A DNA stretch of 61,994 nt from Eubacteriales bacterium (GCA_045604285.1 JAZUNS010000122.1:1-61994); one strand, 5' to 3'; shown: positions 11,495 to 53,200, counted from the first letter of the stretch. Program-made: numbers and translations. Notes: generated by a model not told the origin, from the letters alone.

Positions 11495-11496
11495 TG

Positions 11497-27084: not shown

Positions 27085-27165
27085 AGACGGTCGGCATACA
27101 AACTAACCATGTCCGTTCTGCTTCCTTGTGGTGTCCCACTTATCCGTCAGTCACAGAATCGGCTA
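27079..27165 (-). promoter_or_regulatory. ZTP (pfl motif) riboswitch aptamer
   Basis: Minus strand ..UUCUG-UGACUGACGGAUAA-GUGG-gaca-CCAC-AAGGAAG-CAGAA..(hairpin linker)..ACCGUCUGGGCAC. This matches the pfl consensus GUGACUGGCG ... CCGCCUGGGCA, with compensatory GACGG/CCGUC pseudoknot pairing. It sits upstream of a pur operon. Confidence 0.8.
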
Positions 27166-27222: not shown

Positions 27223-28299
27223 TTAGCGTGATTTTGTCTCGCAATACAAACAGCGATACGTTTTATTCGCTTCATCCGTTAGAACAAATTTGTGCTGAAG
27301 CTCCTGCTCCGTAGCGGTTATACATCTGGGATTGTCACATACAAGATCGGTACGATGTGCAACCTCACATGCCATTTCTTTATTTTCAGCTTCCTTCAAC
27401 AGTTTCAAAATCAACGCCATACGCATATATTTTCCGTTAAGCACCTGTTCAAAATATTTCGCTCTCGGGTCATCGTCAACCGCTACGCTTATTTCGTTAA
27501 CACGGGGCAACGGATGAAGTATACACATATCTTTTTTTGCATTTACCAACTTATCCGGCGTTAAAATAAAGCTGTTCTTTAAGCACTCGTACTCGTCATT
27601 ACTTGCAAAGCGTTCACGCTGCAGTCTTGTCATATAAAGAACGTCAAGTTCAGGCATAGCCTCCTCAAGGCTGGAAACCTGCTTATAAGGCATACCGTTC
27701 TTTTCCAGAACGTCTTTTCTTATATATCCGGGAAGCGTAAGCTTATCAGGGGCAATTAATACGGTATTTACTTCTGTATACCTCGAAAGAGCCGAGATCA
27801 ATGAATGAACCGTTCTGCCATATTTAAGGTCACCGCAATAACCAATAGTAATTTTATTAAGACGGCCCTTGCAACGGTATATTGTAAGCAAATCCGCAAG
27901 CGTTTGCGTAGGATGGTTATGCCCACCGTCTCCGGCGTTAATAACAGGCACCGTAGCATTTCTTGAAGCAACGTACGGAGCGCCCTCTTTATAATGACGC
28001 ATAACTAAAATATCGGCATAACAGCTTAAAACCTTTGCTGTGTCCGCAACGCTTTCACCCTTTGCTGCAGAAGAACTGTTGGGCTCTGAAAAACCTATAA
28101 CATTTCCGCCAAGCTCGTACATAGCCGCTTCAAAGCTTAATCTTGTTCTGGTAGACGGCTCAAAAAACAAAGTAGCAAGCTTTTTTCCTTTGCATATTTC
28201 AGAATATTTAGCAGGATTGGCAATGATATCCTTAGCTGTGGCGATCAAGGAATCAAGCTCTTCAACGGAAAAATCGTTTATACCAATTAAACTTCTCAT
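27223..28299 (-). CDS. pyrB: Aspartate carbamoyltransferase catalytic chain fused to a PyrI-type zinc domain
   Basis: Catalytic motifs [21 protein letters not shown] and [10 protein letters not shown]. An extra ~50-aa C-terminal tail, [14 protein letters not shown]...YRCLYCET, has the Cys4 pattern of the PyrI C-terminal domain. Confidence 0.9.
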
Positions 28300-35919: not shown

Positions 35920-35952
35920 AGAAAAAACAAGGCAACATAACGGTTGCCTTGT
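35920..35952 (-). terminator. Intrinsic terminator ending the 12.7 kb ABC/Yip1 operon
   Basis: Minus strand AACAAGGCAAC-cgttat-GTTGCCTTGTT followed by TTTTTCTT, about 20 nt after the stop at 35974. Confidence 0.85.
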
Positions 35953-35973
35953 TTTCTATACTTGGTATAAGTA

Positions 35974-37008
35974 TTAGCCGGTAACACCGGTACGTTCGAT
36001 ACCTTGAACAAGCTTCTTCTGACCGAAAAGGAACAGAATTACAAGAGGTATCAGTATAAGTATACCAACTGCGTTCTGGATTGCCAATGCATAATTGTTA
36101 GCAACCTGTGCATAATCTTCAAACCAACGCAACGCGGTAGAAGTTTTTTGCACTTCATCAAGGATTTGATTATAGAACACATAGTCGGAATTTGCATAAA
36201 GCATCTTGGTATAGAATCTGTCAGTCCACTGCCAAGAGAAGGTAAAGATGAATATAGTTACCATCATAGGTACGGACATGGGAACGATTATATTCCAAAA
36301 CGTCCTCATGGTGCCTGCGCCGTCAACGTACGCAGCTTCTTCAAGTTCATCGGGAACACCTTTATAGAACTGACGCATCATGAAGATATACAAACCGTTT
36401 CTGTAGCCAATTGCACCGAAAGAAAGAAGTGCAATAGGCCAGTTGGTAGCAAATACGGAATCGGATTCAGGATTCAAAAGGTTTATGCCCAAAGGAATGC
36501 CCCAAATCTTAAAGTCTTGGAAGAAGAATCTCATTGTAGACTGCATCGTCTTGTGAGGAATTACAAGAGTAACGATTACAAACAAGAACAGCAAAGACTT
36601 ACCTTTGAAGTTAAACTTGGAAAAACCGTAGCCTACAAGAGAACACATAAGCATTTGTACGACACCGCAGAACAAGGACACAAGACCTGTATTAAGCGTT
36701 GCCTGCCAGAAAGAGGTTTCGTTTAAAATCATCTTGTAAGTATCAAAAGTAGGATACTTAGGTACAAGCTTAACGGTAACGTCAACGAAATCTTCACCGG
36801 ACATCAAAGAGGTAGATATTTTTGAATAATAAGGGAACAGTATTACATATGAAATACCAATAAGGAATGCATATCTAAACAGTGCCCACAAAAACTTTTT
36901 TGCTGCGAAAAGGGTAAGATACTTATATCTAAAGCGAGTCCAACCGGTAACGTTTTCGTCCAATTTAACTTTATTCTTAGAATAAGTAGGTCTGTCAAAA
37001 GCTCCCAT
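35974..37008 (-). CDS. Binding-protein-dependent ABC permease (MalG/LplC-like), second pair
   Basis: Polytopic protein with EAA loop EEAAYVDGAGTMRTFWNIIVP. An AAGGGGGA RBS is present. Confidence 0.88.
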   Translation of the reverse strand: MGAFDRPTYSKNKVKLDENVTGWTRFRYKYLTLFAAKKFLWALFRYAFLIGISYVILFPYYSKISTSLMSGEDFVDVTVKLVPKYPTFDTYKMILNETSFWQATLNTGLVSLFCGVVQMLMCSLVGYGFSKFNFKGKSLLFLFVIVTLVIPHKTMQSTMRFFFQDFKIWGIPLGINLLNPESDSVFATNWPIALLSFGAIGYRNGLYIFMMRQFYKGVPDELEEAAYVDGAGTMRTFWNIIVPMSVPMMVTIFIFTFSWQWTDRFYTKMLYANSDYVFYNQILDEVQKTSTALRWFEDYAQVANNYALAIQNAVGILILIPLVILFLFGQKKLVQGIERTGVTG

Positions 37009-37026
37009 TAATAACTTCCCCCTTTC

Positions 37027-38010
37027 TTAGTCTCTACGTTGATAGAATACATATGCGGAAATAATACCGGCAACAGCACCTATTATCAACAGAATTACGA
37101 TGAAATACATCCACGACATTGACATCGCCAACGAAAGATTAGTGGTACCGGAGGTCTCATTAATCTCGGTTATATATTTCATTACGTTATTAGATTCGGT
37201 AGTAAACGCATCGATTATGGTATAAATTGCATTTACAAGAATCATAGGGCTGATCATAGGGAAAGTAATCTTCCAGAAGGTTTCCCAAGAAGATGCGCCC
37301 TCGATATATGCAGATTCGTAAATTGCGGGAGCAATAGACTGCAAACCTGCAAGGAATATCAGCATTTGTACACCGGAACGATTGATGATGCCATAAACGT
37401 CATTAACAAGACCGGTAACGTAGGTAACAAGGCCTTCGCCTACTGCCATATTTGCGAAGAAACGCTGAACGTCAATCTGGTTAATAATTTCTGCGCCTGC
37501 AGAAGCAGCTTGGCCTCCTTCCTCACCGGAAGAAATTGAACCCATGCTCTCGGTCATTGTGTTTGCTGCGATGTCAATATACTCAATTATACCGGTCGAA
37601 ACGATAACAGGTATAAAGAATATAGCTCTGAATACTGCTCTGCCACGCATCTTTTGATTAAGAATAATAGCAAGGAAGAGCGAGAAAATTACTATAGCGG
37701 GAACGTCCAAGAGCAAGTCGAGGAGGTTGGTACCAAGCTCTTGCAAAAATCTAACATCTTCACCGATAAACGCATCAATATAGTTCTGAAAACCAACAAA
37801 ATTGTACGTAACGGGCTGAGATGTAGCATCGATTCTGCTAAAGCTTATACGTAAAGACTCAATTATCATCGGAAGATATATGAATGCAAAGCCCAAAATG
37901 AAAGGCAATACAAACACATACCCCATCCTTGATCTGCTCTTTTCCAAGGATTTCGATTTACGACGCTTAGCCGGGCTGCTTAAAGATGCAACTGTGATTC
38001 TGTTTTTCAT
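37027..38010 (-). CDS. Binding-protein-dependent ABC permease (MalF/LplB-like), second pair
   Basis: Polytopic protein with EAA loop ESAYIEGASSWETFWKITFP. ATG 38010 (AGGAGG upstream) is preferred over ATG 38037. Confidence 0.86.
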   Translation of the reverse strand: MKNRITVASLSSPAKRRKSKSLEKSRSRMGYVFVLPFILGFAFIYLPMIIESLRISFSRIDATSQPVTYNFVGFQNYIDAFIGEDVRFLQELGTNLLDLLLDVPAIVIFSLFLAIILNQKMRGRAVFRAIFFIPVIVSTGIIEYIDIAANTMTESMGSISSGEEGGQAASAGAEIINQIDVQRFFANMAVGEGLVTYVTGLVNDVYGIINRSGVQMLIFLAGLQSIAPAIYESAYIEGASSWETFWKITFPMISPMILVNAIYTIIDAFTTESNNVMKYITEINETSGTTNLSLAMSMSWMYFIVILLIIGAVAGIISAYVFYQRRD

Positions 38011-38026
38011 TATTATCCGGCCCTCC

Positions 38027-40885
38027 TTATCCTTCATTAGACGGAGCGAATGTTAAAATATCCGTCGCTTTTACCGTATGGGTTCCATTATCATGGAATA
38101 CAAAATCGGAATCGCTGTAATTAATAACAATTGAATATCCATTGTCATAAGTTACGCGTGCAACGTTATAGTAATCATCGAGGAACTCGTGCTTAACTAT
38201 ACAATTATATTTAACATTGCTAAGTACATCGTTAATCTCGTGATAAGTATTGTATATATCCTCAAGCCAAATGCTGTATCTTACAGAGTAATACTTGGAA
38301 TAAGACTCATCATTCTTAAGATCGGATGTATTCTGAACTGCAACGATAAAGTAAGGAACTGCGCCACATTCTATAGTCTTCAAAACAGAGGACTGATAGT
38401 CGCCTGCCAGGTTCAAAGCTGTACCTGCATACTCAACAGAGCCGTGAAGAACCATGCTATAGAAAGGTATCTCAGTAGAGGTGTTTCTCAACAAAGAGTC
38501 TTCAAGAGGAACTTCAAGAATAAGGTCGGCGTACTTTACAGCAAAAATATTACCACCGGTAAGAAGTACGTTTTCGTTTTGCTCGCTGACTTTCTTAAGA
38601 AGTCTGTCAACGAGAACCTTGGAGTCTTCTCTATTAAGAGGATCATCTTCGTTAAAGTCAGAATTAAGATACTGACCTAAAGTAGAAACTGAAATAGCGT
38701 TAACACCGTACTCTTTGTACTCAGAATAGGTAGAATCGTAAAAGCCCATCATCTTGTTTGTAGAAATAACGCCAAGGCCGCTGTAATCGTAAGATTGATA
38801 TACGGGGTTATAAGCCTTCATGAAAGCTTTTCTGTCATCAATTGTACGAGCAAGATCCTTATCTGCGTCAAAACCGTCAAACATTTCGTCTGCTCTGGAA
38901 AGGGTAAAGTCAAAATCGGGATAAACAGTAACGCCTTTATCATGAGCATAGGAAATCAAGTCTTTAAACGAATCATCGCCACCAAGAACTTTTTCTACGT
39001 CAACGCCGGAAGGAACGTTATAATCAAGACCGCCATCCAACCAACCGTTAAGCTTAACAACGATATTATTAATCTTGCGACCAACACTATCGCCCTGAAG
39101 CATATCAATGATACTTGTCTTGATATCGTCAAAGGTGGTTAATGCTTTCATCTTGGAGTAAGGAACACCAAGAATGCGCGCGGTTGTTTCAATAGCACCC
39201 AACGTTTCAATTACAAGAGGAATATCAGCTTTATCGTCTGCTTCCATAAGAGAGATGGTGCCGTTATCAAGCAAGTAAGAACGCAAGGTATTTGCCATCG
39301 AAGAATAGCTTGTATCCTTTTCATCAAGGATAAAGATTCTAACCTTATAGTTTCTTGTATATTTACGTTTTGCTTCAACAGTCCACATTGTAGAACCGCC
39401 GGAACCACTACCACCAAGACTATATTGGTCGGTAGGACGAGGGTTAAACTTAGTGTAAGCCTGCAAATAAGGATGAGAGTTTGCAGCACAGTTAACTGAA
39501 ATGTCTGCTAAAGATTCACCCTCTTCAACGTAAGCCAAGTAGCCTCTTGCCTTTTCTGTTCCGTCTTCTGCAGCGACAACTTCAGTCATGCCGAAAACAG
39601 GAAGCCTTGCAACTTCGTTGTTGGAACCGGAAATGGTAGAGAAAGAATAATCCTGACCGTATGCAGTAGTTACTAAGGTAAATGTTTGAGATTTTGCATC
39701 TTTAAAATCAATGATAGCACCGGAGCCATCGGGATAAAGAGCAAAACCAGAGTTGTTTATGTTACCAGCACCTGCATAAGGAAGAAGATATACGTCATTA
39801 AGCTGGAAAGACGAGGAGTCGAAACGGATATTACCTGCAGAACAACGAACAACCATACCATATTTATCAAAGGTATATTCAATAGCAAGCTTGAAGGAAG
39901 CAGGAGCTTCGGTTGCAACGGTATAACCGGTTTCTGCATGGTCTTCGTCCAACTGCTCAGCAGTGTAGCCGACTTTCTTTACCCATTCTTCGATATCATC
40001 CATTACTTTACCTTGACCGGTCTTTACGTCGTAAAGATAGCATGTGCCCAACCTATTAACTGCATTTACAACATAATCGGGTTCGCCGGAAAGGTCATCT
40101 TTGCTTATAGGTCTGTAAGGAGCCTTAGCTCTTTCAGAATAGAAATCAAAATTATCGGGATAATCAATGAGCAACTGAGCGTCAACTTTTTCCATCAAAG
40201 CCAAATACTTTTCTTCGGTAATGAAGAAAGGAAGTATACGCTTAACTGCCTGTTCACCAACAGCGTATTCAACTCTGGCACCGTTCTTTATGCCGGAAAT
40301 CTTAATCTGATCGAACAATGCGGACTCTTCAAAGCTATAATACTTATCAGCAACACCGTTTTGAGTGTAATCGATTATAAGCTGAGAATAAAGCTGTGCC
40401 TTGATAGATGTAGCTGCTGTAATACTGCCTATAGCGTAGGGGTTGGTAGACCACTGACCACAGAAGTCATAAATAGCCGTAACTTCATTGCCCTTTAAGT
40501 CTAAAATCGTTTTGTCCGCATAATCGGGATGCAAATCGGGCTTTTTGTCGCCATCAGCATCAACGAGTTTAAGGCAAATAAGCTCACCCGTTAAATCATC
40601 AACATATAACGCATAAGCAGGTGTACCGTCAGCATCATTGTGAGCATACACAAACTTCATGGAAGGTATGCCACCATTAATAACATCAGCGGTAGGTCCG
40701 TCAGCGTATATGCGCTCTACAATGCTTGCGTAAGGAGCAATCATATAAGCCGCTTCAAGCTTATCCCATTTATCAACCGCTTCACCTTCTTCTTCAGCAA
40801 AAACGGTAATAAAACCACAACAAGGGATACACAAAGCCAATACTACGAACAAGGCAATAACTGATAATAATTTATTCATCTTCAT
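38027..40885 (-). CDS. Large (~950 aa) secreted/anchored protein of unknown function, possibly glycoside-hydrolase-like (resembles what I recall as DUF5696; unverified)
   Basis: It has an N-terminal signal/anchor (MKMNKLLSVIALFVVLAL..) and a long uninterrupted ORF. The C-terminal half has alternating beta/alpha-like motifs (VVKLNGWLDGG, VTVYPDFDF, NAISVSTLG, LLTGGN). The start is uncertain (40885 vs 40909). Confidence 0.75.
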   Translation of the reverse strand: MKMNKLLSVIALFVVLALCIPCCGFITVFAEEEGEAVDKWDKLEAAYMIAPYASIVERIYADGPTADVINGGIPSMKFVYAHNDADGTPAYALYVDDLTGELICLKLVDADGDKKPDLHPDYADKTILDLKGNEVTAIYDFCGQWSTNPYAIGSITAATSIKAQLYSQLIIDYTQNGVADKYYSFEESALFDQIKISGIKNGARVEYAVGEQAVKRILPFFITEEKYLALMEKVDAQLLIDYPDNFDFYSERAKAPYRPISKDDLSGEPDYVVNAVNRLGTCYLYDVKTGQGKVMDDIEEWVKKVGYTAEQLDEDHAETGYTVATEAPASFKLAIEYTFDKYGMVVRCSAGNIRFDSSSFQLNDVYLLPYAGAGNINNSGFALYPDGSGAIIDFKDAKSQTFTLVTTAYGQDYSFSTISGSNNEVARLPVFGMTEVVAAEDGTEKARGYLAYVEEGESLADISVNCAANSHPYLQAYTKFNPRPTDQYSLGGSGSGGSTMWTVEAKRKYTRNYKVRIFILDEKDTSYSSMANTLRSYLLDNGTISLMEADDKADIPLVIETLGAIETTARILGVPYSKMKALTTFDDIKTSIIDMLQGDSVGRKINNIVVKLNGWLDGGLDYNVPSGVDVEKVLGGDDSFKDLISYAHDKGVTVYPDFDFTLSRADEMFDGFDADKDLARTIDDRKAFMKAYNPVYQSYDYSGLGVISTNKMMGFYDSTYSEYKEYGVNAISVSTLGQYLNSDFNEDDPLNREDSKVLVDRLLKKVSEQNENVLLTGGNIFAVKYADLILEVPLEDSLLRNTSTEIPFYSMVLHGSVEYAGTALNLAGDYQSSVLKTIECGAVPYFIVAVQNTSDLKNDESYSKYYSVRYSIWLEDIYNTYHEINDVLSNVKYNCIVKHEFLDDYYNVARVTYDNGYSIVINYSDSDFVFHDNGTHTVKATDILTFAPSNEG

Positions 40886-40889
40886 AAAA

Positions 40890-43226
40890 TTATCTACCTG
40901 CCTTTCCATAAGTATCTTTAAGCTTTTTTATACCCTTATTTGCAAATACGAATATAGCTATCACTGCAACAACTATAACTACCGTAAGAATAGCATTAAG
41001 GGGTTTGGTGAAGAATTCACCGATCTCTTCAGTTGTGCCTCTAAGCTTCAATTCTACGAAAATAGTATAGACGAAAGAAGCTATTTTTTGAACAAGGCTA
41101 GTAAACAGTATGCCGATGAACATAATAAATGCCATACCAACTATACTACCTACTATCGTTATCAAATTCTTGAAAAGCGCATAGTCGTGAATTACCATTA
41201 CGCCGAAGAACAGAAGCATCAAAGCCCAAACGAAACCAAAAGAGGTCAAAAGATTAACCAAACCTTGCTCGTCAAGGATGGTAACATTTGAAAGCAAAAC
41301 TGAAGGTATAATCGTCAAGGGAAGAGGAAGAAGTGCATAACAGGTAGTGATATACACATCCTTCAAGCTACCTTCACCCTCGAACAGCGTGGTCAAGCAC
41401 CAGTTAGCAGCAACCCAAAGCGCAACGGGCATTAACACTGAAAGAATAGACATGAAGATACTGGATTCTTCATTATAAGGATTATAAAGGTAGCCTTTAC
41501 CCATTGCTTGATACACAAAAGCAACAACAGTAATACCGAGGATAGTTGTAGCACCCTTTATAGAACCACGCTTTTCATGTTTCAAATCCCAGAAACCATC
41601 GAAAGGATGGGTTAGGATATGGAAAGCATAAAAAACTTCTTCCTTAAGAGTTCTCTTTTCTTTGTAAACAAGACCCTTTTTGTTGACCTTAGTTATATAT
41701 TTCATACACTTGCTAAGAAGAACAAGTGCAACAACTACAACAACAGGGATAAGATATACCCACTTTTCAATCCATTGCTTACGTAAAGCTGCATAAGCAA
41801 TAGAGTAGTTTTCGGTATCATAAGCAAGCTTACAATACTTCATGGATTCTTCATAATCACCATCACGATACAAACTTTGGGCAATGCCTATGTAAGCACT
41901 ATCGTAATTGTTATTGTGCTGAAGTATGGTCTTGTAATACTCTACAGATAAATCGTAATTCTGATCCAAAGTGTTCTGAAGAGCAGCTGCAACGAGATCG
42001 CCGTATTCGGTTCTTTCGTAAACAGTTATAATATTAAGGTCGCTAAGCACAAGAATCTTAGAACCCTGGTAGGCGATAGCGTTAAACGTTGTACCCTGCC
42101 CTATTTGTTCACCTTTATCACCAAAGGCGAACAGCAAGTTGCCGTTATTATCATAAGTGAATATACGGCTACGCTTTTGGTCGATTATACTCCACATACC
42201 GGAGGGCCCAAGGGCTACGTCAACTATTACAGAAGCGCCGGTCACGGTGTTTTCTGCAGTTGCGATAACATTAACGTCAACCTCACCGGAAGGAGGATAA
42301 AAGCCATTTCTTCTCATAACGTCACTACCGTTAGGATTCAGCTTTTTAACGGGAGCATAGTCAGCAGATTTATCACGGTTAGTAATTGCGTTCTGCTGTT
42401 CAGCTGCGTCAATGGAAGAAGTAGTAACATACAAGAAGCCTTCAGAGTCGATCGTGATATTGTTATACTCTGTAGGAACGAACTTTTCACCTGCAGCAAT
42501 TTGTTCTTCTGAAAGGAACAAGGAACGCCACAGAATTGTAAAAGCGTTATAGGAAACTTTCTGAGGACCTATAAAGTTATTGAATGAACCATCACGGTTA
42601 AGGGAAATAACGCCGTAGTTTGTACTTTGAGAAACTACATAAACACGACCGGCTTGGTCAGCAGCTACTGCGATAGGTGTGTAAATGCTATTCTCGGGCA
42701 TTACGTCACTGGAAGGTTCGGGAACGATGCAAACAAAATTACCGAGCTTATCAAAAATAACGATACGCTTATTCTTAGTATCGGCTACATACACTTCAGT
42801 ATCGGAAACATACAGACCGGTAGGGCCTGACAAAGAATCGGCAACGCCTTCATCATTTACGAAATCGCTAATAATGAACTTAAGTGCATAATTCTCATCA
42901 AGAACTTTAATGTTGTTCTTTATAGAGTCGGAGATATAAACGTTATTTTCGTTGTCTGTACAAATATCCTCAATTGCGCCAAATGCCAATTGGTCGGAAG
43001 TGTACATGCTGCTTGCATTCTCATTTGCACCTGCTTCAAACTGCTTAAGAACGGAATTGGCTGTAATAAGAGTTGAAGATACATACGCATGGGGACTTTG
43101 AACCATCTTACCGTTTACGTCATAAGTATAAGTGGTATACGGAACAATCGCACTTGCCGATATGCAACCGAGAAGCATAACAAAGCAAAACGAAATGGAA
43201 ATGAATTTAATTAATCGTTTTTTCAT
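40890..43226 (-). CDS. Lipoprotein NHL-repeat propeller / TPR-like / Yip1-like multi-pass membrane fusion protein
   Basis: Lipobox MLLGC. It has repeated NHL-like blades (VYISDSIKNNIKVLD, VYVADTKNKRIVIFDKLGNF, VYVVSQSTNYGVISLNRDGSF, RIFTYDNNGNLLFAFG) and a TPR-like stretch (aa 410-485). About 7 TM segments follow, with a Yip1-like core. Confidence 0.72.
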   Translation of the reverse strand: MKKRLIKFISISFCFVMLLGCISASAIVPYTTYTYDVNGKMVQSPHAYVSSTLITANSVLKQFEAGANENASSMYTSDQLAFGAIEDICTDNENNVYISDSIKNNIKVLDENYALKFIISDFVNDEGVADSLSGPTGLYVSDTEVYVADTKNKRIVIFDKLGNFVCIVPEPSSDVMPENSIYTPIAVAADQAGRVYVVSQSTNYGVISLNRDGSFNNFIGPQKVSYNAFTILWRSLFLSEEQIAAGEKFVPTEYNNITIDSEGFLYVTTSSIDAAEQQNAITNRDKSADYAPVKKLNPNGSDVMRRNGFYPPSGEVDVNVIATAENTVTGASVIVDVALGPSGMWSIIDQKRSRIFTYDNNGNLLFAFGDKGEQIGQGTTFNAIAYQGSKILVLSDLNIITVYERTEYGDLVAAALQNTLDQNYDLSVEYYKTILQHNNNYDSAYIGIAQSLYRDGDYEESMKYCKLAYDTENYSIAYAALRKQWIEKWVYLIPVVVVVALVLLSKCMKYITKVNKKGLVYKEKRTLKEEVFYAFHILTHPFDGFWDLKHEKRGSIKGATTILGITVVAFVYQAMGKGYLYNPYNEESSIFMSILSVLMPVALWVAANWCLTTLFEGEGSLKDVYITTCYALLPLPLTIIPSVLLSNVTILDEQGLVNLLTSFGFVWALMLLFFGVMVIHDYALFKNLITIVGSIVGMAFIMFIGILFTSLVQKIASFVYTIFVELKLRGTTEEIGEFFTKPLNAILTVVIVVAVIAIFVFANKGIKKLKDTYGKAGR

Positions 43227-43241
43227 GTTATCCTCCTTATT

Positions 43242-44129
43242 TTAGTCCTTCATACCGGAAGTAGACATTGTTTGAATTACATTACTTTGAGTAATGATAA
43301 ATACGATAATAGGAACTATCATGGTAACAACAGTAGATGCAGCGGAAGCACCTGCTCTCGCTATACCTGCAGAAACAACCTGGCTTATAGCGTAGTTAAA
43401 AGTTTTAAGCTGTTCGCTATAAATGTAGGTACTTGTACCACTGTTCCACAAACCATTGAATGCAAATATAATCAAGGTAACCCACGCAGGCTTAACCATG
43501 GGCATTGCAATGGTCCAGAAAATTCTCATTTCGCTGGCACCTTCAAGACGGGCAGACTCAAGAACGGGGTCAGATACGGATGTTTCCATAAACTGCTTCA
43601 TCAAGTACAAGCCATACGTTGTACACCATGCAGGAACTATAAGCGCCCAATAGGTATCGATCATACCGAAGATAGACATTGTTATAAAGTTGGTTATACC
43701 TGTAACTGTAGAGTTAAACATCAAGGAATAAACAACTATCTTAAAGAAGAATTTTCTACCGGGGAAAGCTATCTTCGCCAAGGCGTATGCCGCAAGAGAG
43801 GAGAACAGTACGTTGCCTGCGGTACCGACTACTGAAATAAACACGGTATTAAATATGTAGCGTGAAAAAGGTACCCAAGCGTCACCCAACATTCTGAACA
43901 AGTCGGTATAGTTTTTGCCGGTGGGATGTTCAACAAACACTCTGGGCGGGAACCGCCACAGCTCATCAAGAGGCTTGAGGGACTGTGAAATGGCATAAAT
44001 CATAGGGAAAATCATTACAACGCCGAACAAAGCGAGGAAGAAAAATATACCTGCATCGCCGCCGGCAGAGCGATTTAAACGCTTAGGTTTGTCGCCCTTC
44101 TTTTGCGCTCTGGTTAATTTCTTAGCCAT
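43242..44129 (-). CDS. Binding-protein-dependent ABC permease (MalG/LplC-like), first pair
   Basis: Polytopic protein with EAA loop ESARLEGASEMRIFWTIAMP. Confidence 0.9.
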   Translation of the reverse strand: MAKKLTRAQKKGDKPKRLNRSAGGDAGIFFFLALFGVVMIFPMIYAISQSLKPLDELWRFPPRVFVEHPTGKNYTDLFRMLGDAWVPFSRYIFNTVFISVVGTAGNVLFSSLAAYALAKIAFPGRKFFFKIVVYSLMFNSTVTGITNFITMSIFGMIDTYWALIVPAWCTTYGLYLMKQFMETSVSDPVLESARLEGASEMRIFWTIAMPMVKPAWVTLIIFAFNGLWNSGTSTYIYSEQLKTFNYAISQVVSAGIARAGASAASTVVTMIVPIIVFIITQSNVIQTMSTSGMKD

Positions 44130-44134
44130 ATTTC

Positions 44135-45082
44135 TTATGTACCCACCTTTCTCAACATTTTGGTAACGAGGGCGTTTGCACCAACCATCATGAGGAACAA
44201 GATGGTTGCAATTGCAGATGCATAACCCATTTCAAAACGTGATCCACCGTAGTCCTGGAGATGGTGCATTATGGTATGCACACAATAGTCAGGGCTGGGG
44301 AAACCTACAAGCGCAGTTATAACGGCGCCGAAGCCAAAGGAGTTGGTTATCGCCAAGATAGCACCGAGCATAAGCTGAGGCTTCATAGTAGGAAGGGTGA
44401 TATACCAAAGTTCCTGGAAACGATGCTTAATACCGTCAACCGCACCTGCTTCGTACAAAGACTTATCAACAACCTGGAAACCTGCGATAAACGTAAGGAA
44501 CGAAGTACCCAAGCTGGTCCAAAGAGCAACTACAATTACCAACGGGAATATGTAATCAGTATCCTGGAACCAAAGCACAGGGGAATTGATAAAGCCTAAC
44601 TGCATAAGCCAGGAGTTAACAAGACCGTATTGGTCGCCGGAGAACAGCAACGTCCAAATGAGGTATACGTTACCTGCTATGGAAGGTGCATAGAATATAA
44701 GGGTTACAAATGCTCTAAGCTTAGGCTTAAGCTCATTTATAAACCATGCGATAAACAAAGATAACAAATAAGATACGGGGCCGGTTATGCATGCAAAAAT
44801 GAACGTATTTTTAATAGATAAAAGGAAAATATCGTCATCGAGGAAAAGTCTGATATAGTTATCAAACCAAACAAGATCCGGCCACTCAAGCATGTTGAAC
44901 GTAGTAAAACTGAGAACCACGGAAAGGATAACGGGAACTACAGTGAATGTGAAGAAAAGAAGGAAGAACGGAGCAATCATAAGATATGCTACTTTATACT
45001 TTTTCATTTCTATCCAAGTCCACTGGAGCTTTGATTTGTCTCTTCTAAGCACAGGCTGCTCAGAAATTGTCTTTTGTTCCAT
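44135..45082 (-). CDS. Binding-protein-dependent ABC permease (MalF/LplB-like), first pair
   Basis: Polytopic protein with EAA loop YEAGAVDGIKHRFQELWYITLP. Confidence 0.9.
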   Translation of the reverse strand: MEQKTISEQPVLRRDKSKLQWTWIEMKKYKVAYLMIAPFFLLFFTFTVVPVILSVVLSFTTFNMLEWPDLVWFDNYIRLFLDDDIFLLSIKNTFIFACITGPVSYLLSLFIAWFINELKPKLRAFVTLIFYAPSIAGNVYLIWTLLFSGDQYGLVNSWLMQLGFINSPVLWFQDTDYIFPLVIVVALWTSLGTSFLTFIAGFQVVDKSLYEAGAVDGIKHRFQELWYITLPTMKPQLMLGAILAITNSFGFGAVITALVGFPSPDYCVHTIMHHLQDYGGSRFEMGYASAIATILFLMMVGANALVTKMLRKVGT

Positions 45083-45120
45083 ATTACATCTCCTTGAATA
45101 ATTTAATGAAAAGTATCGCC

Positions 45121-48100
45121 TTAATCATCCAGAGGATAATCTTCAGCTATAGGCAGATCAAACTCTTGCCTCTTTCTTGAAAGCTCTGCATTAATTGTAG
45201 TTATGTAGGACTGCAACTTTTCAACAGGTTCGTCATCATCATTGTAAACACCCAAGAACGCAAATTGTGCATAACGAGCAATTATGTAACCACCGGGATA
45301 TTCGGGAGTACAAGTAATGTTCTGGAACTGTGCAAAAAGTCTGTCATACTCAGCCTTAGACCAAGGCATGGAGTAGAGTGCTTCCATGTTAGCGGTGTTC
45401 TGCTTTGCGGAAGGACCGAGAAGAGCTTCCATCTCGTTACCGTAGCTACTTTGTGCATCAGCGCTGGACCACCACTGCATAAATACGTATGTAGCAAATT
45501 CGTTTCCACGCTCTTCAACAGAACGCAACATCATCATGGTTGTAACGGTACCAACAGAAGTATTGTTAATGATACCGGTCTTTTCATCAATAGTGCCGGG
45601 CAGCGGAACGAATTCCCACATACCGTTAATTTCAGGCGCAAATACTATAAGCTGGTTGTATGCCGTATAATCAGCAACTGCAATGGGCATTTCACCGGAG
45701 CGGAAACGGTTTGCAAAGTCATAGGTTACGGGGAAATCATACATCGTGTAAAGCTGGCAAACGTCTTCAAAACATGCCAATGCAGTTTCGTCATCAAGGT
45801 TGATTGTCATACCGTCGGTTTTAGGAACCTCAAGAGAAACAAGCTCACCGGTGTTTTCATCAACATAAGTCTTAATGTATGTGTTGCCGCTTTCCTTTAA
45901 CTTTTTCCAATATTCTTCGTTGTTCTTATAGGCATCATAATTGCCTTCATCGTACATCGTTATACCCTTTTGGTACATCCAAATCGTAGAGCCGGTAACA
46001 CCGGAGGGGAAACCGATTTCCAACTTGTTGGACTGTAAGGTATAAATCATCTGATAGAACTCATCCCAGGTATAAGGAACGGTCAAATCAAGTTCTGCTA
46101 ATATGTCTTTTCTGTAGAACATCATATAGAATGACATATTTTCAGGAATACCATACATCTTGCCGTAAAGTGTAAGGGGTACGGTAGCCTGTTCAGCAAA
46201 ACGTTCTTTTACTTCATCAATGGTATCAACTCTCCAATCAAGAGCGCCATCTTCAGTGTAAAGAATATTGCCTTTTTCATCCTTATAGTATTTGCTGAAA
46301 TATTCGTCATCTTCATAGGCAGAGAAATCATTAAAGTTGTAACCTTTAACATCATCACCCTGCTTATATTCGGTTGTATCATTTAGAGCCATTACCGCTG
46401 AACGAATTGCGTAGTTGATTGCCTCCGTCTGTGCATTACCCAAAGCAACGTCAGGGCCGGTGCCTGCGAGGGTGGAAGGCAACAACGTACCTGCAGCAAC
46501 CAGTTTAACTTTTATATCAATACCGGGATACAAAGTCGTAAACTTATCGTCAACCAAATTTCTCAAAATAGAAGCCTGGTCACGACCGGTAGTAACCCAA
46601 ACCTCAACGGTATGTTCTTGGTCGGTTTCCTCAGTGCCTTCACCGGAAGAACTACTAATAGAAGTATAATCGGTGAAGAAGGACATCACAAACTTAAGAA
46701 TTTCCTGCCACAGTTCTCTAAAGAAACCGGCTTCTGCTTCGGGAAGTGCATCAGCAGGAGACATAAATCTAAAGTAGTCGATATTTAAGGGCTGATTCTG
46801 GGTTTGTGTAAGCCAAGTACCCAAAGAACCACTTTGTGTTTTCAAATCATCCATCAAAGAAGCGATCTTAGAAGGATCATTACCCATCTGGCTAACGGTG
46901 TAAGCAACTTTCTCAAGGGTTACAGAGTGATCACCAGGGCCCATAGCAGCTACGAGCTTATCATAAATATCATAAAGATTTTCTGCCTCAGTCCTCAAAC
47001 CTCTAACAACCTCGGGCAGAGTACGCTCAAAGCTGTAGTCACGATATTCGTCAGGATCGGGACCGGTAATCATCAATATCTTTCTGTAGTAAGAGTTTAT
47101 ATTATTAAGAGAAACTTCAACGTCGCTAAGAAGACCGGCCATCTCGCCAAGAACGACCTCAAGTCTGATTGTATACGTATGGTCTTTTTCCAAATAGAAT
47201 TTGAAATCAGTATTCCCGTCGGAGAGAACACCGGTCTGCCATACGTCGCTGTAATCGAAACGCAAAGCTGCAGCTTCAGCAAAAGGAATTTCACCATCGA
47301 TATACAGTCTTCTGGAAACAAAAACGCCGGAGTAGAAGTCCTGTATAGAACGAGTTACTATGTTATAAAAGCCGGTTTCGGGAACAGTAACCTGCCACTC
47401 AATCCACTGACCAACATACTGCCACTTGTCGCCGCCTATTTCATTAAGGAGTGTACAAGATACGTCCTGAGGTTCAGTGTAAGCGGAAGTTCTGTCGCTG
47501 GTTTGGTATATTGTGTTAGAAGAAGTTTTATATGTATCTTCACCTTGAACAGAAACACAAGTACCGGAAGTTACGTCCTTTGCATCCTTATGAGCCTCAA
47601 GATACTCCTCATAAGACTGTGCGCTCTTTACAGGGACAAAAGAGAGTGCAGACAGAACGAGAGGCTCTCTGATAGCGTCAAGGGTAACCGTATGGGTAGA
47701 GCCGGCTTCAAGATAAAACATAAGGGGCTCAGAAGCATAGCCGGTGGAATCGTAAATCTTAGTAGTTACCCATTCTGCAAGCAGTTCCTTATCAGGCTTC
47801 TTTTCGTTATCATTGCCATCTACAACGAAAAGGGTTTTACCGTTTTTCTTAGCTTCTTCCAAAGCCTTGAAATACGCCTCTTCATTGGAATAAATAGCAA
47901 CTTTACCTTTAACACACTTATCGCAGCCTTCCTTGCTACCGTTGCAATTCTCGCACTTTAAATAGTAAGTGTCAAGCCAAGTACGCTGAAATTCTACAGA
48001 ACGCGCTTCCTTATAGGGAATCGCACCGTCGATAAGTATCTTTCTTTCAATAGCGGAGTTCTTTGCAGTAATATTCAACAAATCAGCACCGCATTCTTTA

Positions 48101-48651
48101 CACTTAGTTTCAGTGTTGGAAAAATCTTCCTTTTCAACAGTTGTAACGGTAAGCTTGTGACCGTCTTCGCAACTATCGGAAGGATAAAAATACACGTTGC
48201 CGGTGTAATATTCAGCTTCTAACCAATAGAAGGCGGTTTCTTCTACAGTGAATGTAAAAGTAACGCTACCATCATCGCCTGCAACGAGAATAGGAAAATC
48301 AGCACTCTTGTCAACGCCTTCAACGCCGGCAAGCTTGTTTACGTTTTCCAAATAAGCAATCGTAGCGTCATGAGCTTTTTCATCAACACAAGACGACAAG
48401 TCGATGCTTATCTCTTTCGTTGCATTCTTATCGCTTGAATAAGAATTAACGTGCAAATAGTCGGAATAAGAGGTTGAAGATAATTCATCCTTAATCTCCG
48501 ACAAATCGATTTCTACCATTGAATCGGGAAGATCCATGGTACCGGTTTCAGCAGCGCTTGCATTTCCGACAGAACCAAAGCCTGTTACAAGCATAACAAG
48601 CATTAGCACAAAGACAAGCGCTCTTTTGGGCATAGAAGTTTCTCTTGCCAT
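45121..48651 (-). CDS. Giant (~1176 aa) extracellular solute-binding protein with N-terminal duplicated beta-sandwich (CBM-like) modules
   Basis: The C-terminal ~520 aa are family-1 SBP-like (VEVWVTTGRDQ.., GTGPDVALG). The N-terminal ~650 aa are extra. The signal peptide has ASAAE and no lipobox Cys. ATG 48651 has AGGAGG 8 nt upstream. Confidence 0.85.
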   Translation of the reverse strand: MARETSMPKRALVFVLMLVMLVTGFGSVGNASAAETGTMDLPDSMVEIDLSEIKDELSSTSYSDYLHVNSYSSDKNATKEISIDLSSCVDEKAHDATIAYLENVNKLAGVEGVDKSADFPILVAGDDGSVTFTFTVEETAFYWLEAEYYTGNVYFYPSDSCEDGHKLTVTTVEKEDFSNTETKCKECGADLLNITAKNSAIERKILIDGAIPYKEARSVEFQRTWLDTYYLKCENCNGSKEGCDKCVKGKVAIYSNEEAYFKALEEAKKNGKTLFVVDGNDNEKKPDKELLAEWVTTKIYDSTGYASEPLMFYLEAGSTHTVTLDAIREPLVLSALSFVPVKSAQSYEEYLEAHKDAKDVTSGTCVSVQGEDTYKTSSNTIYQTSDRTSAYTEPQDVSCTLLNEIGGDKWQYVGQWIEWQVTVPETGFYNIVTRSIQDFYSGVFVSRRLYIDGEIPFAEAAALRFDYSDVWQTGVLSDGNTDFKFYLEKDHTYTIRLEVVLGEMAGLLSDVEVSLNNINSYYRKILMITGPDPDEYRDYSFERTLPEVVRGLRTEAENLYDIYDKLVAAMGPGDHSVTLEKVAYTVSQMGNDPSKIASLMDDLKTQSGSLGTWLTQTQNQPLNIDYFRFMSPADALPEAEAGFFRELWQEILKFVMSFFTDYTSISSSSGEGTEETDQEHTVEVWVTTGRDQASILRNLVDDKFTTLYPGIDIKVKLVAAGTLLPSTLAGTGPDVALGNAQTEAINYAIRSAVMALNDTTEYKQGDDVKGYNFNDFSAYEDDEYFSKYYKDEKGNILYTEDGALDWRVDTIDEVKERFAEQATVPLTLYGKMYGIPENMSFYMMFYRKDILAELDLTVPYTWDEFYQMIYTLQSNKLEIGFPSGVTGSTIWMYQKGITMYDEGNYDAYKNNEEYWKKLKESGNTYIKTYVDENTGELVSLEVPKTDGMTINLDDETALACFEDVCQLYTMYDFPVTYDFANRFRSGEMPIAVADYTAYNQLIVFAPEINGMWEFVPLPGTIDEKTGIINNTSVGTVTTMMMLRSVEERGNEFATYVFMQWWSSADAQSSYGNEMEALLGPSAKQNTANMEALYSMPWSKAEYDRLFAQFQNITCTPEYPGGYIIARYAQFAFLGVYNDDDEPVEKLQSYITTINAELSRKRQEFDLPIAEDYPLDD

Positions 48652-48707
48652 TCGACATTCCTCCTGAAAATTACTGTATAATATTACATCATACAAATAC
48701 AAGCTTT

Positions 48708-48736
48708 ATATTAACAGATTGGAGTTATTTTGTCAA
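48708..48736 (-). promoter_or_regulatory. Putative sigma-A promoter of the ABC/Yip1 operon
   Basis: Minus strand TTGACA - 17 nt - TAATAT, about 55 nt upstream of the SBP start. Confidence 0.55.
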
Positions 48737-49145: not shown

Positions 49146-50210
49146 TCAATTGTTTAAACTTTTTAGTGTAACCACATAGTAACCGCTGTTAGTACCGGAT
49201 ATACTATATGTATACTTCGATTCATCTTCCGGCACATTAATTTGCGTCACATCACCATCGTGCGCTTTGACGGCATAAATCTCATAGCCGTTCCCCTGCG
49301 CATCTTTGATAGTAGCCCTATTTTCATAATCGGTCTTTTCTTGAAGATATTTAATATAATCCTCTAAAACCCATTTATTGACATGCATAATAGCGGCATG
49401 CGGAACGCCGATATATCTGAAATGTGTGGAATCGGAACGCGCCTGTGTAACATCATCTTTACCTTCAGGATACCTTAAAGCGAAACCGTATTTCCAGCAA
49501 TTGTCCGTGAACCATTCATAGGGTCCCTCCCCCATTGTACCGGAAGAGCTCGGATATACAGTAAGATGCAAAGCCAAACCCGTTTGATGTTCACTTTGAC
49601 CGCCCGCTTGCATATAAGGAAGCTCTGTCTTTTCGGCTGTAGCTGATTCCTTATCGTAACTAGACTGTTGATCTTCTGCCGAAACGTATGCACGCGAAAC
49701 CATAAGCGTATTAAGAGGAATATTTGTGTCCGCATAAAACCCATCAAGCATAAGACATAAAGCGTTAAAGGCGTCCAAGTCAAGCTCAAGAGAAGCATAG
49801 CTTAAAACAAAATCTTTGTCAAGCTTTGTTTTTTCTACATATATGTTCACAAGACGCTCACTAACATCATTAGTGAACTTGTGGTCTTGATTAACAAACA
49901 GCATTTCGCCTTCTTGAAGCATGGAATTGTTAACTTCAACAACTTTAAAATCGATCGTATCGTTCCCGGTTGGAGGTGCAACGCTAGTCAAAGACGAATC
50001 GTCGGCCTCTGATTTTTCAGGCATACTTGAGTCAGAAGTTCCGTCTATTACCACACGACTATCATTAGCTGTAGAGTCGCCGTCAGTGTTTCGTTCGCAT
50101 GTGCCAAACGAGACAAGCAGCACTATTATGAGCGCCATAACAACTACAATAACAATAGCCATTTTTTCAAATTCATACATCTTATTCTTATTGTTCAAAT
50201 TACCTGACAT
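49146..50210 (-). CDS. Membrane-anchored VanY/LdcB-like (M15B) peptidase homologue with variant metal motifs
   Basis: An N-terminal TM segment is followed by SEHQTGLALH and CWKYGFALRYP..DSTHFRYIG, which resemble the SxHxxGxAxD and ExxH blocks. ATG 50210 has GAGGTG 4 nt upstream. Confidence 0.8.
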   Translation of the reverse strand: MSGNLNNKNKMYEFEKMAIVIVVVMALIIVLLVSFGTCERNTDGDSTANDSRVVIDGTSDSSMPEKSEADDSSLTSVAPPTGNDTIDFKVVEVNNSMLQEGEMLFVNQDHKFTNDVSERLVNIYVEKTKLDKDFVLSYASLELDLDAFNALCLMLDGFYADTNIPLNTLMVSRAYVSAEDQQSSYDKESATAEKTELPYMQAGGQSEHQTGLALHLTVYPSSSGTMGEGPYEWFTDNCWKYGFALRYPEGKDDVTQARSDSTHFRYIGVPHAAIMHVNKWVLEDYIKYLQEKTDYENRATIKDAQGNGYEIYAVKAHDGDVTQINVPEDESKYTYSISGTNSGYYVVTLKSLNN

Positions 50211-50240
50211 AACACACCTCAGCACTCGATAGTAAGCAAA

Positions 50241-50262
50241 GGGCGGGCTAAAAAGCCCGCCC
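50241..50262 (-). terminator. Intrinsic terminator after PFOR
   Basis: Minus strand GGGCGGGC-ttttt-AGCCCGCCC followed by TTTGCTT. Confidence 0.85.
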
Positions 50263-50273
50263 GAATATCTTGG

Positions 50274-53200
50274 TTATTCTGCTAACTTCTTAAGTTGAGC
50301 ATACTTATCCTTTGCACACTTTTCAGCGTTTTCAAAAAGAACAGCTGCTCTATCAGGGAACGCGATGCCCAAAGAGCTGTAACGAGTTTCGGTCTTGATG
50401 AAGTCCTGATAATTCGTTGTGGGTTCCTTGGAATCGAGAACGAAGGGGTTTACACCCTCAGCGTTGCGACGAGGATCAAATCTAAAGGTATGCCAATAGC
50501 CGGCAGCAACAGCAGCCTTAGTTTCAAGCATGCTGGTACCAAGACCCTTCTTTATACCATGGTTAATACAAGGAGCATAACCGATAACGATAGAGGGACC
50601 CTTGTAGCTTTCAGCTTCAGTGATTGCCTTTATGCACTGGTTATAGTCAGCACCCATTGCAACCTGTGCAACGTATACGTAACCGTAAGACATTGCGATT
50701 GCAGCGAGATCCTTCTTCTTGGTGCCCTTGCCGTTAGCAGCAAACTGAGCAACAGAACCGATAGGAGTAGCCTTAGAAGCCTGACCGCCGGTGTTAGAGT
50801 ATACTTCGGTATCAAATACGAAAATGTTAATATCTTCGCCGGAAGCAAGTGCGTGGTCAAGACCGCCGAAGCCGATATCGTATGCCCAACCGTCGCCGCC
50901 GAATATCCAAACGGACTTCTTAACGAAGAGGTCGCTCATAGCGAGAGCTTTATCGATATCTGCCTTGTCACAATTGCAAGAAGACTTAGCATTCTTAAGC
51001 ACGTCGATAAGTGCAGCAGATGCAGCCTTAGAAGCTTCACCTTCATCCTTAACTTCGAGCCATGCCTTTGCAGCCGAGGAAAGCTTTTCGCATTCAGCTT
51101 CTGCAAACTTCTCTACCAAAGCGATAAGCTTAGAACGTCTGGTGCGAATAGCGGTAGCCATACCAAGACCGTATTCTGCGTTATCTTCAAAGAGAGAGTT
51201 AGCCCAAGCGGGACCGTTACCCTGTTTGTTAGTGGTGTAAGGAGTAGCAGGTGCAGAACCGCCCCAAATGGAAGAACAGCCGGTAGCGTTAGCTATAAGC
51301 ATTCTATCGCCGTAAAGCTGAGTAATAAGCTTTGCGTAAGGAGTTTCGCCACAACCGGGGCAAGCGCCGGAGAACTCAAGCAGAGGCTGCTTGAACTGGC
51401 TGCCCTTTACGGTTTCTTGCTTAAACTTAGCAAGAACATTAGCGTCGTCACAATACTTGTAGCTGAGTTCGAAATACTGCTGTTGATCAAGCTGGGTGTC
51501 GGTAGCAGCCATATTAAGAGCCTTTTCGCCCTTGCGGCCGGGACAGATCTGTGCACAAGAACCGCAGCCTACGCAGTCAAGCACGGAAACGGTAACGCCA
51601 AACTTGTATCCGGGAAGGCCGGTCATTGCGGTAAGCTTCATTTCAGGATACTGTTCTGCTTCAGCATCAGTCATAGCAACAGGTCTGATTGCTGCGTGAG
51701 GACATACCAAAGAGCAGAAGTTACACTGGATACAATTTTCAGGAATCCAAGAGGGAACGTCAACAGCTACACCGCGCTTTTCAAAAGCAGAGCTGCCCTG
51801 AGGGAATGTACCGTCAGCACTGTCTGCAAATGCAGAAACAGGAAGATCGTCACCCTTCTGACCGTTAACGGGAGTAAGTATGTTCTTAACGAAGTTTGCA
51901 AGTTCGGGTCTTGCGTTGATTTCAGCGTCTGCAGCTTCTGCATCAACAGCGTTTGCCCAAGAAGCAGGAACGTCAATCTTAACTGCTGCATTAGCGCCTG
52001 CGTCAATTGCAGAGTAGTTCATCTGAACTACTGCTTCGCCCTTCTTAAAGAAGCTCTTATATGCTGCTTCCTTCATGTACTTGATTGCATCTTCGGAAGG
52101 AATGATGTTAGCAAGATTGAAGAATGCACTTTGAAGAACGGTATTGGTTCTGCCGCCGAGACCGAGGCCACGAGCGATAGTAATAGCGTCAACGGTATAG
52201 AAGTTTACGTTTTTAGTTGCGATATCACGCTTTGCCTTTGCAGGAAGATATTTTTCAAGTTCTTCTGCAGACCACTGGCAGTTAAGAAGGAAGGTTGCTC
52301 CATCCTTAAGGTCGCCGGTAATATCATACTTGTTGATATAAGAAGGATTGTGGCAAGCTACGAAGTCAGCCTGAGAAACGTAATAAGTGGAACGAATGGG
52401 CTTATCACCGAAACGAAGGTGAGAAACGGTTATACCGCCGGACTTCTTAGAGTCATAAGCGAAATAAGCCTGAATGTATTTGTCGGTATGGTCACCGATA
52501 ATCTTAATAGAGTTCTTGTTTGCACCAACGGTACCGTCGGAACCAAGACCCCAGAATTTACAAGAAACAGTTCCTTCGGGAGCAGTGCTTTCCATAGGAA
52601 CGATGGGAAGAGAAAGATTGGTAACGTCATCGTTAATGCCGAGGGTAAAGCCGTTGATGGGCTTTTCAGCATCAAGGTTAGCGTAAACAGCTTTAATGCA
52701 TGCAGGGGTAGTGTCCTTAGAACCGAGACCGAAACGGCCGCCTACAACCAAAGCACCTTCAAATTCAGTACCTCTGAGAGCGCTTACAACGTCAAGATAA
52801 AGAGGCTCAGCCAAAGAGCCGGGCTCTTTAGTACGGTCAAGAACAGCTATCTTCTTAACGGACTTAGGAATAGCATTAACAAAGCTGTCGATTGCGAAGG
52901 GACGGTAAAGTCTAACCTTAAGAAGACCAAGTTTTTCGCCCTTTGCGTTAAGATAATCAATAGTTTCTTCTATGGTATCGCAAACAGAGCCCATAGCGAT
53001 GATGATCTTATCAGCATCAGCAGCACCGTAATAGTTGAAAAGCTTATAATCGGTACCTATCTTAGCGTTAACCTTATCCATGTATTCCTGAACAACAGCG
53101 GGAACGGCATTATAATAAGGATTGCATGCTTCTCTTGCCTGGAAGAATATGTCAGGATTCTGTGCAGAACCTCTGAGAACGGGATGTTCGGGATTGAGAG

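Follow-up and report, generated by a model that had tools for sequence, protein, structure and literature searches.

A conserved seven-gene module with a giant solute-binding protein, two permease pairs and two large extracytoplasmic proteins in Clostridia and Bacilli: a candidate system for oligosaccharide capture and import

Seven genes on the minus strand of a 61,994-nt stretch of DNA from a Eubacteriales bacterium (GCA_045604285.1, JAZUNS010000122.1:1-61994; the whole stretch is hereinafter called the window) encode a giant solute-binding protein (SBP), two pairs of ATP-binding cassette (ABC) importer permeases and, between these pairs, two large extracytoplasmic proteins. On balance, these genes, denoted A to G in the order of transcription, probably comprise an operon for the integrated surface capture, trimming and import of complex, most likely hemicellulose-type plant oligosaccharides. 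Each part is of a known kind, but neither the conserved architecture with two translocons nor either of the large proteins has been characterized.

Invariant gene order of the module

The open reading frames (ORFs) of the 62-kb window include the seven tightly packed minus-strand ORFs (35974..48651) that an initial annotation of this DNA had delineated. With the start codons of that annotation, the intergenic gaps from A to G are 38, 5, 15, 4, -11 and 18 nt. The tight spacing, together with a conserved promoter and ribosome-binding site (RBS) and a strong terminator (see below), points to a single operon of seven genes. A scan with two peptide patterns across GTDB, in which each species was represented by one genome, identifies relatives of DUF5696, the family of the gene E protein, in at least 179 species, and 80 loci were taken from this set. 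When every ORF of 86 loci from distinct genomes (individual loci are referred to by L numbers) is compared with the seven window proteins, the arrangement A-B-C-D-E-F-G on one strand is found in 69; the remaining 17 loci are cut by contig ends or carry frameshifts (L002), and none is rearranged. The order is identical in the 91 related loci examined, from both Clostridia and Bacilli, even where protein E (~950 aa) is only about 25% identical; for example, it is kept in Paenibacillus sp. EC2-1 at 28% and in L006 at 25% identity, as well as in annotated records of the cultured species Paenibacillus cellulosilyticus and Butyrivibrio fibrisolvens. A search begun from a distant relative of the giant SBP reaches the same module, which is complete in L091, the contig of L089 ending after the fourth gene. 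None of the 91 loci has DUF5696 anywhere but in the module. The claim of the initial annotation that the seven genes are a single unit, which hinged on conservation of their order in relatives, is therefore borne out: the genes act as a conserved unit. Two of the modules, in L019 (a contig of a metagenome-assembled genome (MAG) labeled 'Candidatus Margulisbacteria') and L020 (a Clostridiales MAG contig), have identical gene lengths and near-identical match statistics, so that one of these bins is probably misassigned.

A cluster of the same order heads the xylan degradation locus of Caldicellulosiruptor bescii, namely, the operon xloEFG-X-GH129-axoFGE (Athe_0174-0181; orthologs, Csac_2419-2412), which encodes an SBP (Athe_0174), two permeases (0175 and 0176), an 'NHL repeat-containing protein' (0177), a 'putative GH129' (0178), two more permeases (0179 and 0180) and a second SBP (0181) (PMC8579813). 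All of Athe_0174-0181 is upregulated on both xylan and Avicel, with msmK as the co-induced ATPase; a regulon reconstruction assigns these genes to XynR and AraR and interprets the cluster as two independent CUT1 transporters, with X and GH129 left unexplained (PMC8579813); XynR binds an operator upstream of Athe_0174 in vitro (PMC12285236). The C. bescii cluster resembles that of the window in the order of the first seven genes, in having no ATPase gene in the cluster and in the single upstream operator; it differs in its eighth gene, which encodes the second SBP (AxoE), and in the xylanases downstream, whereas the window has one SBP and housekeeping neighbors. It is very likely that this cluster, compared here by gene order and product names, is the same module, because both of these agree and because a further SBP follows the second pair, as in Butyrivibrio (see below). 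The initial annotation knew of no characterized example of the architecture; that the latter is wholly undescribed finds no support, given that a same-order cluster lies within a published locus, where it is described as two CUT1 transporters (PMC8579813). In the searchable literature, queried for DUF5696, Athe_0177/0178, Csac_2415/2416 and combinations of Yip1, NHL and SBP, no study of the module as a whole is found.

Domain architectures of the seven proteins

All module features described below are on the minus strand. Gene A (45121..48651) encodes the giant secreted binding protein of 1176 aa. An AlphaFold2 model of this protein, built with orthologs from a search of representative sequences (pLDDT 81.4, pTM 0.80), consists of a signal peptide, beta-sandwich regions (~120-232, 287-340 and 365-500), a four-helix bundle (504-618) and a MalE-type SBP fold (681-1165). 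A whole-chain Foldseek search, which reports the SBP half only, identifies mostly oligosaccharide SBPs, with target-normalized TM-scores up to 0.81, and comparison of the gene A profile with the PDB detects sugar-binding proteins, with Lin1841 as the best match (E 1e-22). The gene A sequence itself has no Pfam match; among its orthologs, 15 to 21 of 29 match SBP_bac_1/8. Gene A encodes, by these features, a family 1 (MalE-like) extracytoplasmic SBP of the kind found in CUT1 importers, and the profiles and the model show a binding protein of the sugar/oligosaccharide type with extra beta-sandwich domains, in support of the initial interpretation. The family is large, with 1109 clusters at 50% identity (E<=1e-30), of which nearly all of the top 150 span 900-1450 residues; many clusters come from cultured Paenibacillus and Bacillus, and uncultured Clostridia are also named.

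The families of the four permeases were assigned by Pfam and NCBIfam scans. In pair 1, gene B (44135..45082) encodes a MalF/UgpA-type permease of 315 aa with the EAA loop at aa 211, which matches BPD_transp_1 (42 bits) as well as UgpA, GlcT and MalF, and gene C (43242..44129) encodes a MalG/UgpE-type permease of 295 aa with the EAA loop at aa 191, which matches UgpE (75 bits) and MalG (47 bits), its Pfam match (22.8 bits) being below the gathering score. In pair 2, gene F (37027..38037) encodes a MalF/UgpA-type permease of 336 aa with the EAA loop at aa 241 and a long extracytoplasmic insert (~aa 157-225), which matches UgpA and, over aa 224-333 only, BPD_transp_1 (40.8 bits); gene G (35974..37008) encodes a MalG-type permease of 344 aa with the EAA loop at aa 224, which matches BPD_transp_1 (56.9 bits), UgpE and MalG. 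EAA-G motifs, which the initial annotation had reported for both pairs, are present in all four proteins, as expected of the MalF/MalG membrane subunits of a CUT1 importer (TC 3.A.1.1). Given that each pair combines a MalF-type and a MalG-type member, all with EAA loops, each looks like a complete translocon. Furthermore, the best match of each permease in the other loci is always the gene at the same position, which implies that the two pairs are old, distinct lineages. Between the window and Butyrivibrio, pair 1 is by far the best conserved, with 58% (gene B and its ortholog) and 54% identity, against 42% and 38% for pair 2, 35% for the SBP and 27% for DUF5696. Importers of the MalEFGK2-type CUT1 class, including the Firmicutes systems that share MsmX or MsmK, resemble the module in possessing a MalE-type SBP, MalF/MalG permeases with EAA loops and, often, an ATPase encoded elsewhere; unlike them, the module has an SBP that is about three times the normal size, contains beta-sandwich and helical domains and lacks a lipobox, as well as two permease pairs and two large obligatory proteins.

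Gene D (40890..43226) encodes a protein with a signal peptide, an ectodomain consisting of an NHL propeller and TPRs, and a Yip1 membrane domain. Hydropathy and profile searches delineate a six-blade NHL and TPR ectodomain (aa ~28-489), a transmembrane segment (490-508), the Yip1 transmembrane bundle (589-724) and a last transmembrane segment (743-761); between the first transmembrane segment and the bundle lies a K/R-rich cytoplasmic loop of about 80 residues, the conserved columns of which include the near-invariant motif HPFDGFWDLKHEKRGS at 540-555. The Yip1 family (PF04893) is matched over the full profile with 55.5 bits, against a cut-off of 28.6, at aa 535-704, in agreement with the transmembrane segments, so that membership in this family appears secure; the NHL match (37 bits) is also above the threshold. 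A profile of 28 orthologs compared with the PDB retrieves NHL propellers of six blades, among which is the extracellular PknD sensor domain (E 7e-21), and then TPRs, and no recognizable signaling output domain is found in this protein in a Pfam scan. Signals of the signal peptidase I type are present in protein A, the ectodomain of D and protein E, and none of the three contains a lipobox, LPXTG or SLH motif. The sequence LLGC of the window protein D resembles a lipobox; anchoring as a lipoprotein was rejected because the cysteine is not conserved whereas the ASA signal peptidase I site is. In B. fibrisolvens (pNP243, L087, 9669..11764), NHL-TPR and Yip1 are encoded by separate, overlapping genes (498 and 206 aa), and hence the NHL-Yip1 fusion is not obligatory.

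A Yip1-family protein is an accessory subunit of an ABC transporter in the YknWXYZ system of Bacillus subtilis, in which YknXYZ is an exporter of the MacB/FtsX type that includes a membrane-fusion protein. The module resembles this system in the genetic linkage of a bacterial membrane protein with a Yip1 domain to an ABC transporter; it differs in that the Yip1 partners here are permeases of a type I importer and in the large NHL-TPR ectodomain attached to the Yip1 domain. Next to gene D, no FtsX, HlyD or ABC_tran families are found, the neighbors being BPD_transp_1 permeases, the SBP and DUF5696, so that the neighborhood is not of the YknWXYZ type. YknW, invoked as a precedent in the initial annotation, is part of a MacB-type exporter and hence belongs to a different ABC class.

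Gene E (38027..40885) encodes a protein of 952 aa with a full-length match to the Pfam family DUF5696 (PF18952, E 8e-151), a family mentioned in no searchable paper. The AlphaFold2 model obtained with 31 homologs (pLDDT 86.8, pTM 0.81) includes an N-terminal signal or anchor, a lineage-specific region (~40-320), a GH129-like beta-sandwich, a (beta/alpha)8 barrel (~550-860) and a C-terminal beta domain; the last three correspond to the three-domain architecture of GH129. A Foldseek search retrieves the ZgGH129-like structure 5opq (E 1e-25), NagBb 5wzn (E 1e-21) and also 8rzk, with target-normalized TM-scores of 0.70-0.73, and GH101, GH31 and GH36 enzymes rank after the GH129 matches. The DUF5696 profile compared with the PDB identifies NagBb with E 1e-7 over only 130 residues, and identity to the GH129 structures is 11-14%, below similarity at the level of a family. 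This low identity, the short profile match and the placement in DUF5696 by Pfam indicate that the protein lies outside GH129, to which it is only remotely related. That GH129 is the best solved relative of the DUF5696 profile would explain the label 'GH129' of Athe_0178. When the 31-sequence profile was aimed at the named Caldicellulosiruptor proteins, the same relatives were returned, and concatenated conserved blocks yielded short fragments only.

With respect to catalysis, D743 (in 'NSDF', after strand beta-4 of the barrel) is conserved in about 27 of the 31 sequences and, judging from strand order and spacing, is a candidate for the nucleophile equivalent to D435 of NagBb and D486 of DagB. 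Position 790, at the end of beta-6, the candidate acid/base (cf. E478 of NagBb), is D or E in about 20 of the 31 sequences and N in about nine. NagBb and the GH129-like DagB, both of them active enzymes, share only the nucleophile, the acid/base Glu not being conserved between them (PMC5698469), so that the variable acid/base of DUF5696, which follows the same pattern, is compatible with catalysis. Overall, DUF5696 resembles the GH129 and GH129-like alpha-glycosidases, its best structural match, in the succession of beta-sandwich, TIM barrel and C-terminal beta domain and, presumably, in the conserved Asp after beta-4; unlike them, it has an extra N-terminal region of about 280 residues, a signal peptide, a candidate acid/base position that varies, motifs of its own (PDGSG and YGxD) and an invariable location in an ABC transporter operon. 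A glycosidase-like fold fits the 'processing' role that was initially suggested for the ~950-aa protein. As also anticipated, this protein and the NHL-Yip1 protein lie outside well-characterized enzyme families, but a probable homolog sits in the described utilization locus of C. bescii.

Regulatory signals, genomic context and the ATPase

The initial annotation framed the genes with a near-consensus promoter and a strong terminator, and both are found. The promoter (48708..48736), detected by a consensus scan and by conservation, consists of the -35 box TTGACA, a 17-nt spacer and the extended -10 box TG-TAATAT. Promoter-like sites in the region (43) are not more common than in shuffled sequences (41.6), so that the motif taken alone is weak evidence. 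In an alignment of upstream regions, the -35 box and the extended -10 box are kept in all seven aligned relatives and the RBS AGGAGG and ATG 48651 in six, and the DNA farther upstream is unalignable; because the conserved footprint ends at this diverged DNA, both the promoter and ATG 48651 as the start of the SBP gene are supported. The longest ORF of gene A opens at TTG 48702; AGGAGG precedes ATG 48651, and the latter, not TTG 48702, is the start, in agreement with the initial annotation. For gene E, the start at 40885 is more plausible than that at 40909, and gene F may start at ATG 38010 instead of 38037, which would abolish the 11-nt overlap. In the 5' leader (48652..48707), TGTAT repeats and an imperfect palindrome, TGTAATATTATACA, are followed by the RBS AGGAGG; the stretch from the -10 box to the RBS (48660..48705) is conserved in the close relatives L001, L007 and L009, and repeats of the TGTAT type are also present in the more distant L010, L012 and L053. 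The repeats and TGTAATATTATACA are a possible operator for some regulator. At the other end, an intrinsic-terminator-like hairpin (35922..35957) has a 15-pair stem, a 6-nt loop and a T tract. A search for cre (CcpA) sites identifies none in the promoter, with a single one-mismatch match within the SBP gene (48537..48550); in the window as a whole, cre-like sites (TGWAANCGNTNWCA, at most one mismatch) are more frequent than expected (18 versus 5.1, each palindrome being scored on the two strands).

In the window, the module is flanked by unrelated housekeeping genes, PFOR and a VanY-type peptidase upstream (49146..53819, minus strand) and a separate pyr operon downstream; the VanY gene has its own weak terminator-like hairpin. 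Among the 86 loci, a gene for a VanY-type D,D-carboxypeptidase is located directly upstream on the same strand in 43, and PFOR is present in 38. The cluster contains only one SBP gene and no regulator, as correctly stated in the initial annotation, and the flanks contain neither a regulator nor a classified carbohydrate-active enzyme (CAZyme) such as would mark a Gram-positive polysaccharide utilization locus. The 116 flanking gene families surveyed with Pfam are a mixed set, most of them housekeeping, with a few CAZyme-related genes and two AraC-type response regulators; SBP families do not occur among the flank families matched at least twice in this survey, which suggests that a second SBP in cis is rare.

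In several other hosts, the context does point to glycans. In B. fibrisolvens D1 (pNP243), divergent histidine kinase and response regulator genes and a GH43 gene precede the giant SBP, two permeases, NHL, YIP1, DUF5696, two permeases and two ordinary SBPs unrelated to the giant one, so that with the two-component system and GH43 the locus qualifies as a polysaccharide utilization locus. In Paenibacillus sp. EC2-1, an AraC-type response regulator and a sensor-like SBP adjoin the module, and in L006 a GH130 gene is nearby. Together with the xylan induction of the same-order C. bescii cluster, GH43 and the two-component system of Butyrivibrio and GH130 of L006 strengthen the link to glycans proposed in the initial annotation. 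The idea that one SBP serves both permease pairs finds no support, given that ordinary SBPs directly follow the second pair in Butyrivibrio and C. bescii. Nor is there support for the earlier proposal that the NHL-Yip1 and DUF5696 proteins are partners of the second translocon in particular.

A tblastn search of the 62-kb window with the UgpC protein of Paenibacillus as the query and positive control detects no ATPase of the MalK/MsmX/UgpC type. The sole ATPase match, with 29% identity, is the protein with a double nucleotide-binding domain (NBD) of a CUT2/Bmp-type nucleoside ABC transporter (10508..15613, minus strand), which comprises a PnrA-like binding protein (14384..15613), the fused double-NBD ATPase (12695..14266) and two permease-sized ORFs. 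This ATPase lacks the canonical LSGGQ and is missed by a motif scan for Walker A and LSGGQ. The earlier statement that there is no ATPase is thus correct for the MalK/MsmX type, the Bmp/CUT2 double-NBD ATPase at 12695..14266 being unrelated. In P. cellulosilyticus, ugpC, encoding a MalK/MsmX-type ATPase, is located directly upstream of the giant SBP gene; besides this species, a UgpC-type ATPase gene is nearby in only one other of 93 sources (L030, ~8.5 kb away). With ugpC in cis in P. cellulosilyticus and msmK co-induced in C. bescii, the borrowing of a remote ATPase, also proposed earlier, is plausible.

Elsewhere in the window, a ZMP/ZTP riboswitch (27074..27164, minus strand; RF01750, 59 bits, with the gathering score at 39) immediately precedes purE (26530..27057) and a pur operon extending to ~16509. 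The gene for the catalytic chain of aspartate carbamoyltransferase (27223..28299, minus strand) carries a fused zinc domain of the regulatory chain (PyrI_C, aa 320-356), as it does in L001. An ORF of 1168 aa antisense to PFOR (50295..53801, plus strand) is a shadow ORF, not a gene.

Proposed function and alternative explanations

Under the scheme of integrated capture, trimming and import, the giant binding protein A would hold the glycan at the cell surface, and the DUF5696 protein E would remove or cleave an alpha-linked residue. The two translocons would then import the products, which may be of two classes in the lineages with extra SBPs, and an ATPase of the MalK/MsmX/UgpC type encoded elsewhere would power both. 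The NHL-TPR-Yip1 protein D might be a membrane tether or organizer that holds A and E beside the channels: it is the only membrane-anchored extracytoplasmic protein of the module, A and E being devoid of a lipobox, LPXTG or SLH anchor, and is therefore the natural candidate for a tether. As in the SusCD 'utilisomes' of Bacteroidota, surface binding, trimming and uptake would be coupled and encoded together; the two systems differ entirely in their proteins, envelope and energy source.

Several observations weigh against this scheme. For the C. bescii genes, the argument for homology comes from annotation and gene order. In the window and in most relatives, the module is placed among housekeeping genes (PFOR, VanY and the pyr operon), with no CAZymes or regulator nearby. 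The matches of gene A orthologs to CBM_35 and Golvesin_C are weak (17-29 bits over ~40 residues), so that there is only a hint that the beta domains may bind carbohydrate. Given the variable position 790, some or all DUF5696 proteins may not be hydrolases, and the invariant PDGSG and YGxD motifs of this family are located outside the barrel, in the beta-sandwich.

A stronger version of the scheme appears doubtful. It holds that all seven proteins form one supercomplex, a Gram-positive counterpart of the utilisome, in which D would tether A and E over the two MalFG translocons and, via its cytoplasmic motif, link extracellular events with the shared ATPase, and that DUF5696 would be the founder of a new family of glycosidases.

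Somewhat less likely still, two independent CUT1 importers, A-B-C and F-G, flank surface proteins D and E that are unrelated to transport, with F-G relying on an SBP encoded elsewhere. This explanation coincides with the annotation of the C. bescii locus and is compatible with each pair being a complete MalF and MalG set with EAA loops, as well as with the ordinary SBPs directly after pair 2 in C. bescii and Butyrivibrio, which in the latter bear no relationship to the giant SBP. However, D and E are always located between the pairs, DUF5696 never occurs outside the module in the 91 loci, and a second SBP in cis is rare, judging from the 116 flank families; moreover, the gene order has survived from Bacilli to Clostridia, which is rarely the case for unlinked functions.

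An improbable alternative is that the module is an envelope-maintenance system that salvages or remodels a glycopolymer of the wall or capsule of the cell itself and has no part in foraging. The housekeeping neighbors, the strong and apparently unregulated promoter, the absence of CAZymes near the module in most hosts and the VanY-type D,D-carboxypeptidase gene in half of the loci (43 of 86) would fit such a role. The adjacency to VanY and PFOR, however, looks like lineage synteny, being absent in Paenibacillus, Butyrivibrio, L005 and L006, and the xylan induction of the same-order C. bescii cluster, the sugar-sensing two-component systems and the GH43 or GH130 neighbors in other hosts argue for foraging. 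The least probable option, and a very unlikely one, is that D and E are a sensor or gate, with NHL detecting the polymer, the cytoplasmic motif regulating the shared ATPase or the translocons and DUF5696 being a non-catalytic glycan binder, a view prompted by the resemblance of the NHL ectodomain to the PknD sensor domain, the near-invariant motif at 540-555 of D and the variable acid/base position of DUF5696, but at odds with the lack of a recognizable signaling output domain in D and with the candidate nucleophile Asp being mostly conserved; loss of a conserved acid/base also separates active GH129 and GH129-like enzymes (PMC5698469).

In the usual picture, an ABC sugar importer of Gram-positive bacteria consists of an ATPase, a single pair of permeases and one lipoprotein as the binder. 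The module goes beyond this picture in that its giant binder is unanchored, the permease pairs are two, and two further large proteins are extracytoplasmic; this layout has been kept from Paenibacillus to rumen and gut Clostridia. The module is common in fiber-degrading gut and rumen lineages and is probably also present in the biomass degrader C. bescii. Should the parts work together, DUF5696 would gain a function and bacterial Yip1 domains a role, and metabolic reconstructions that divide this cluster into two unrelated transporters would need correction. The module would then be a model of how monoderm bacteria couple the processing of glycans at the surface with their uptake.

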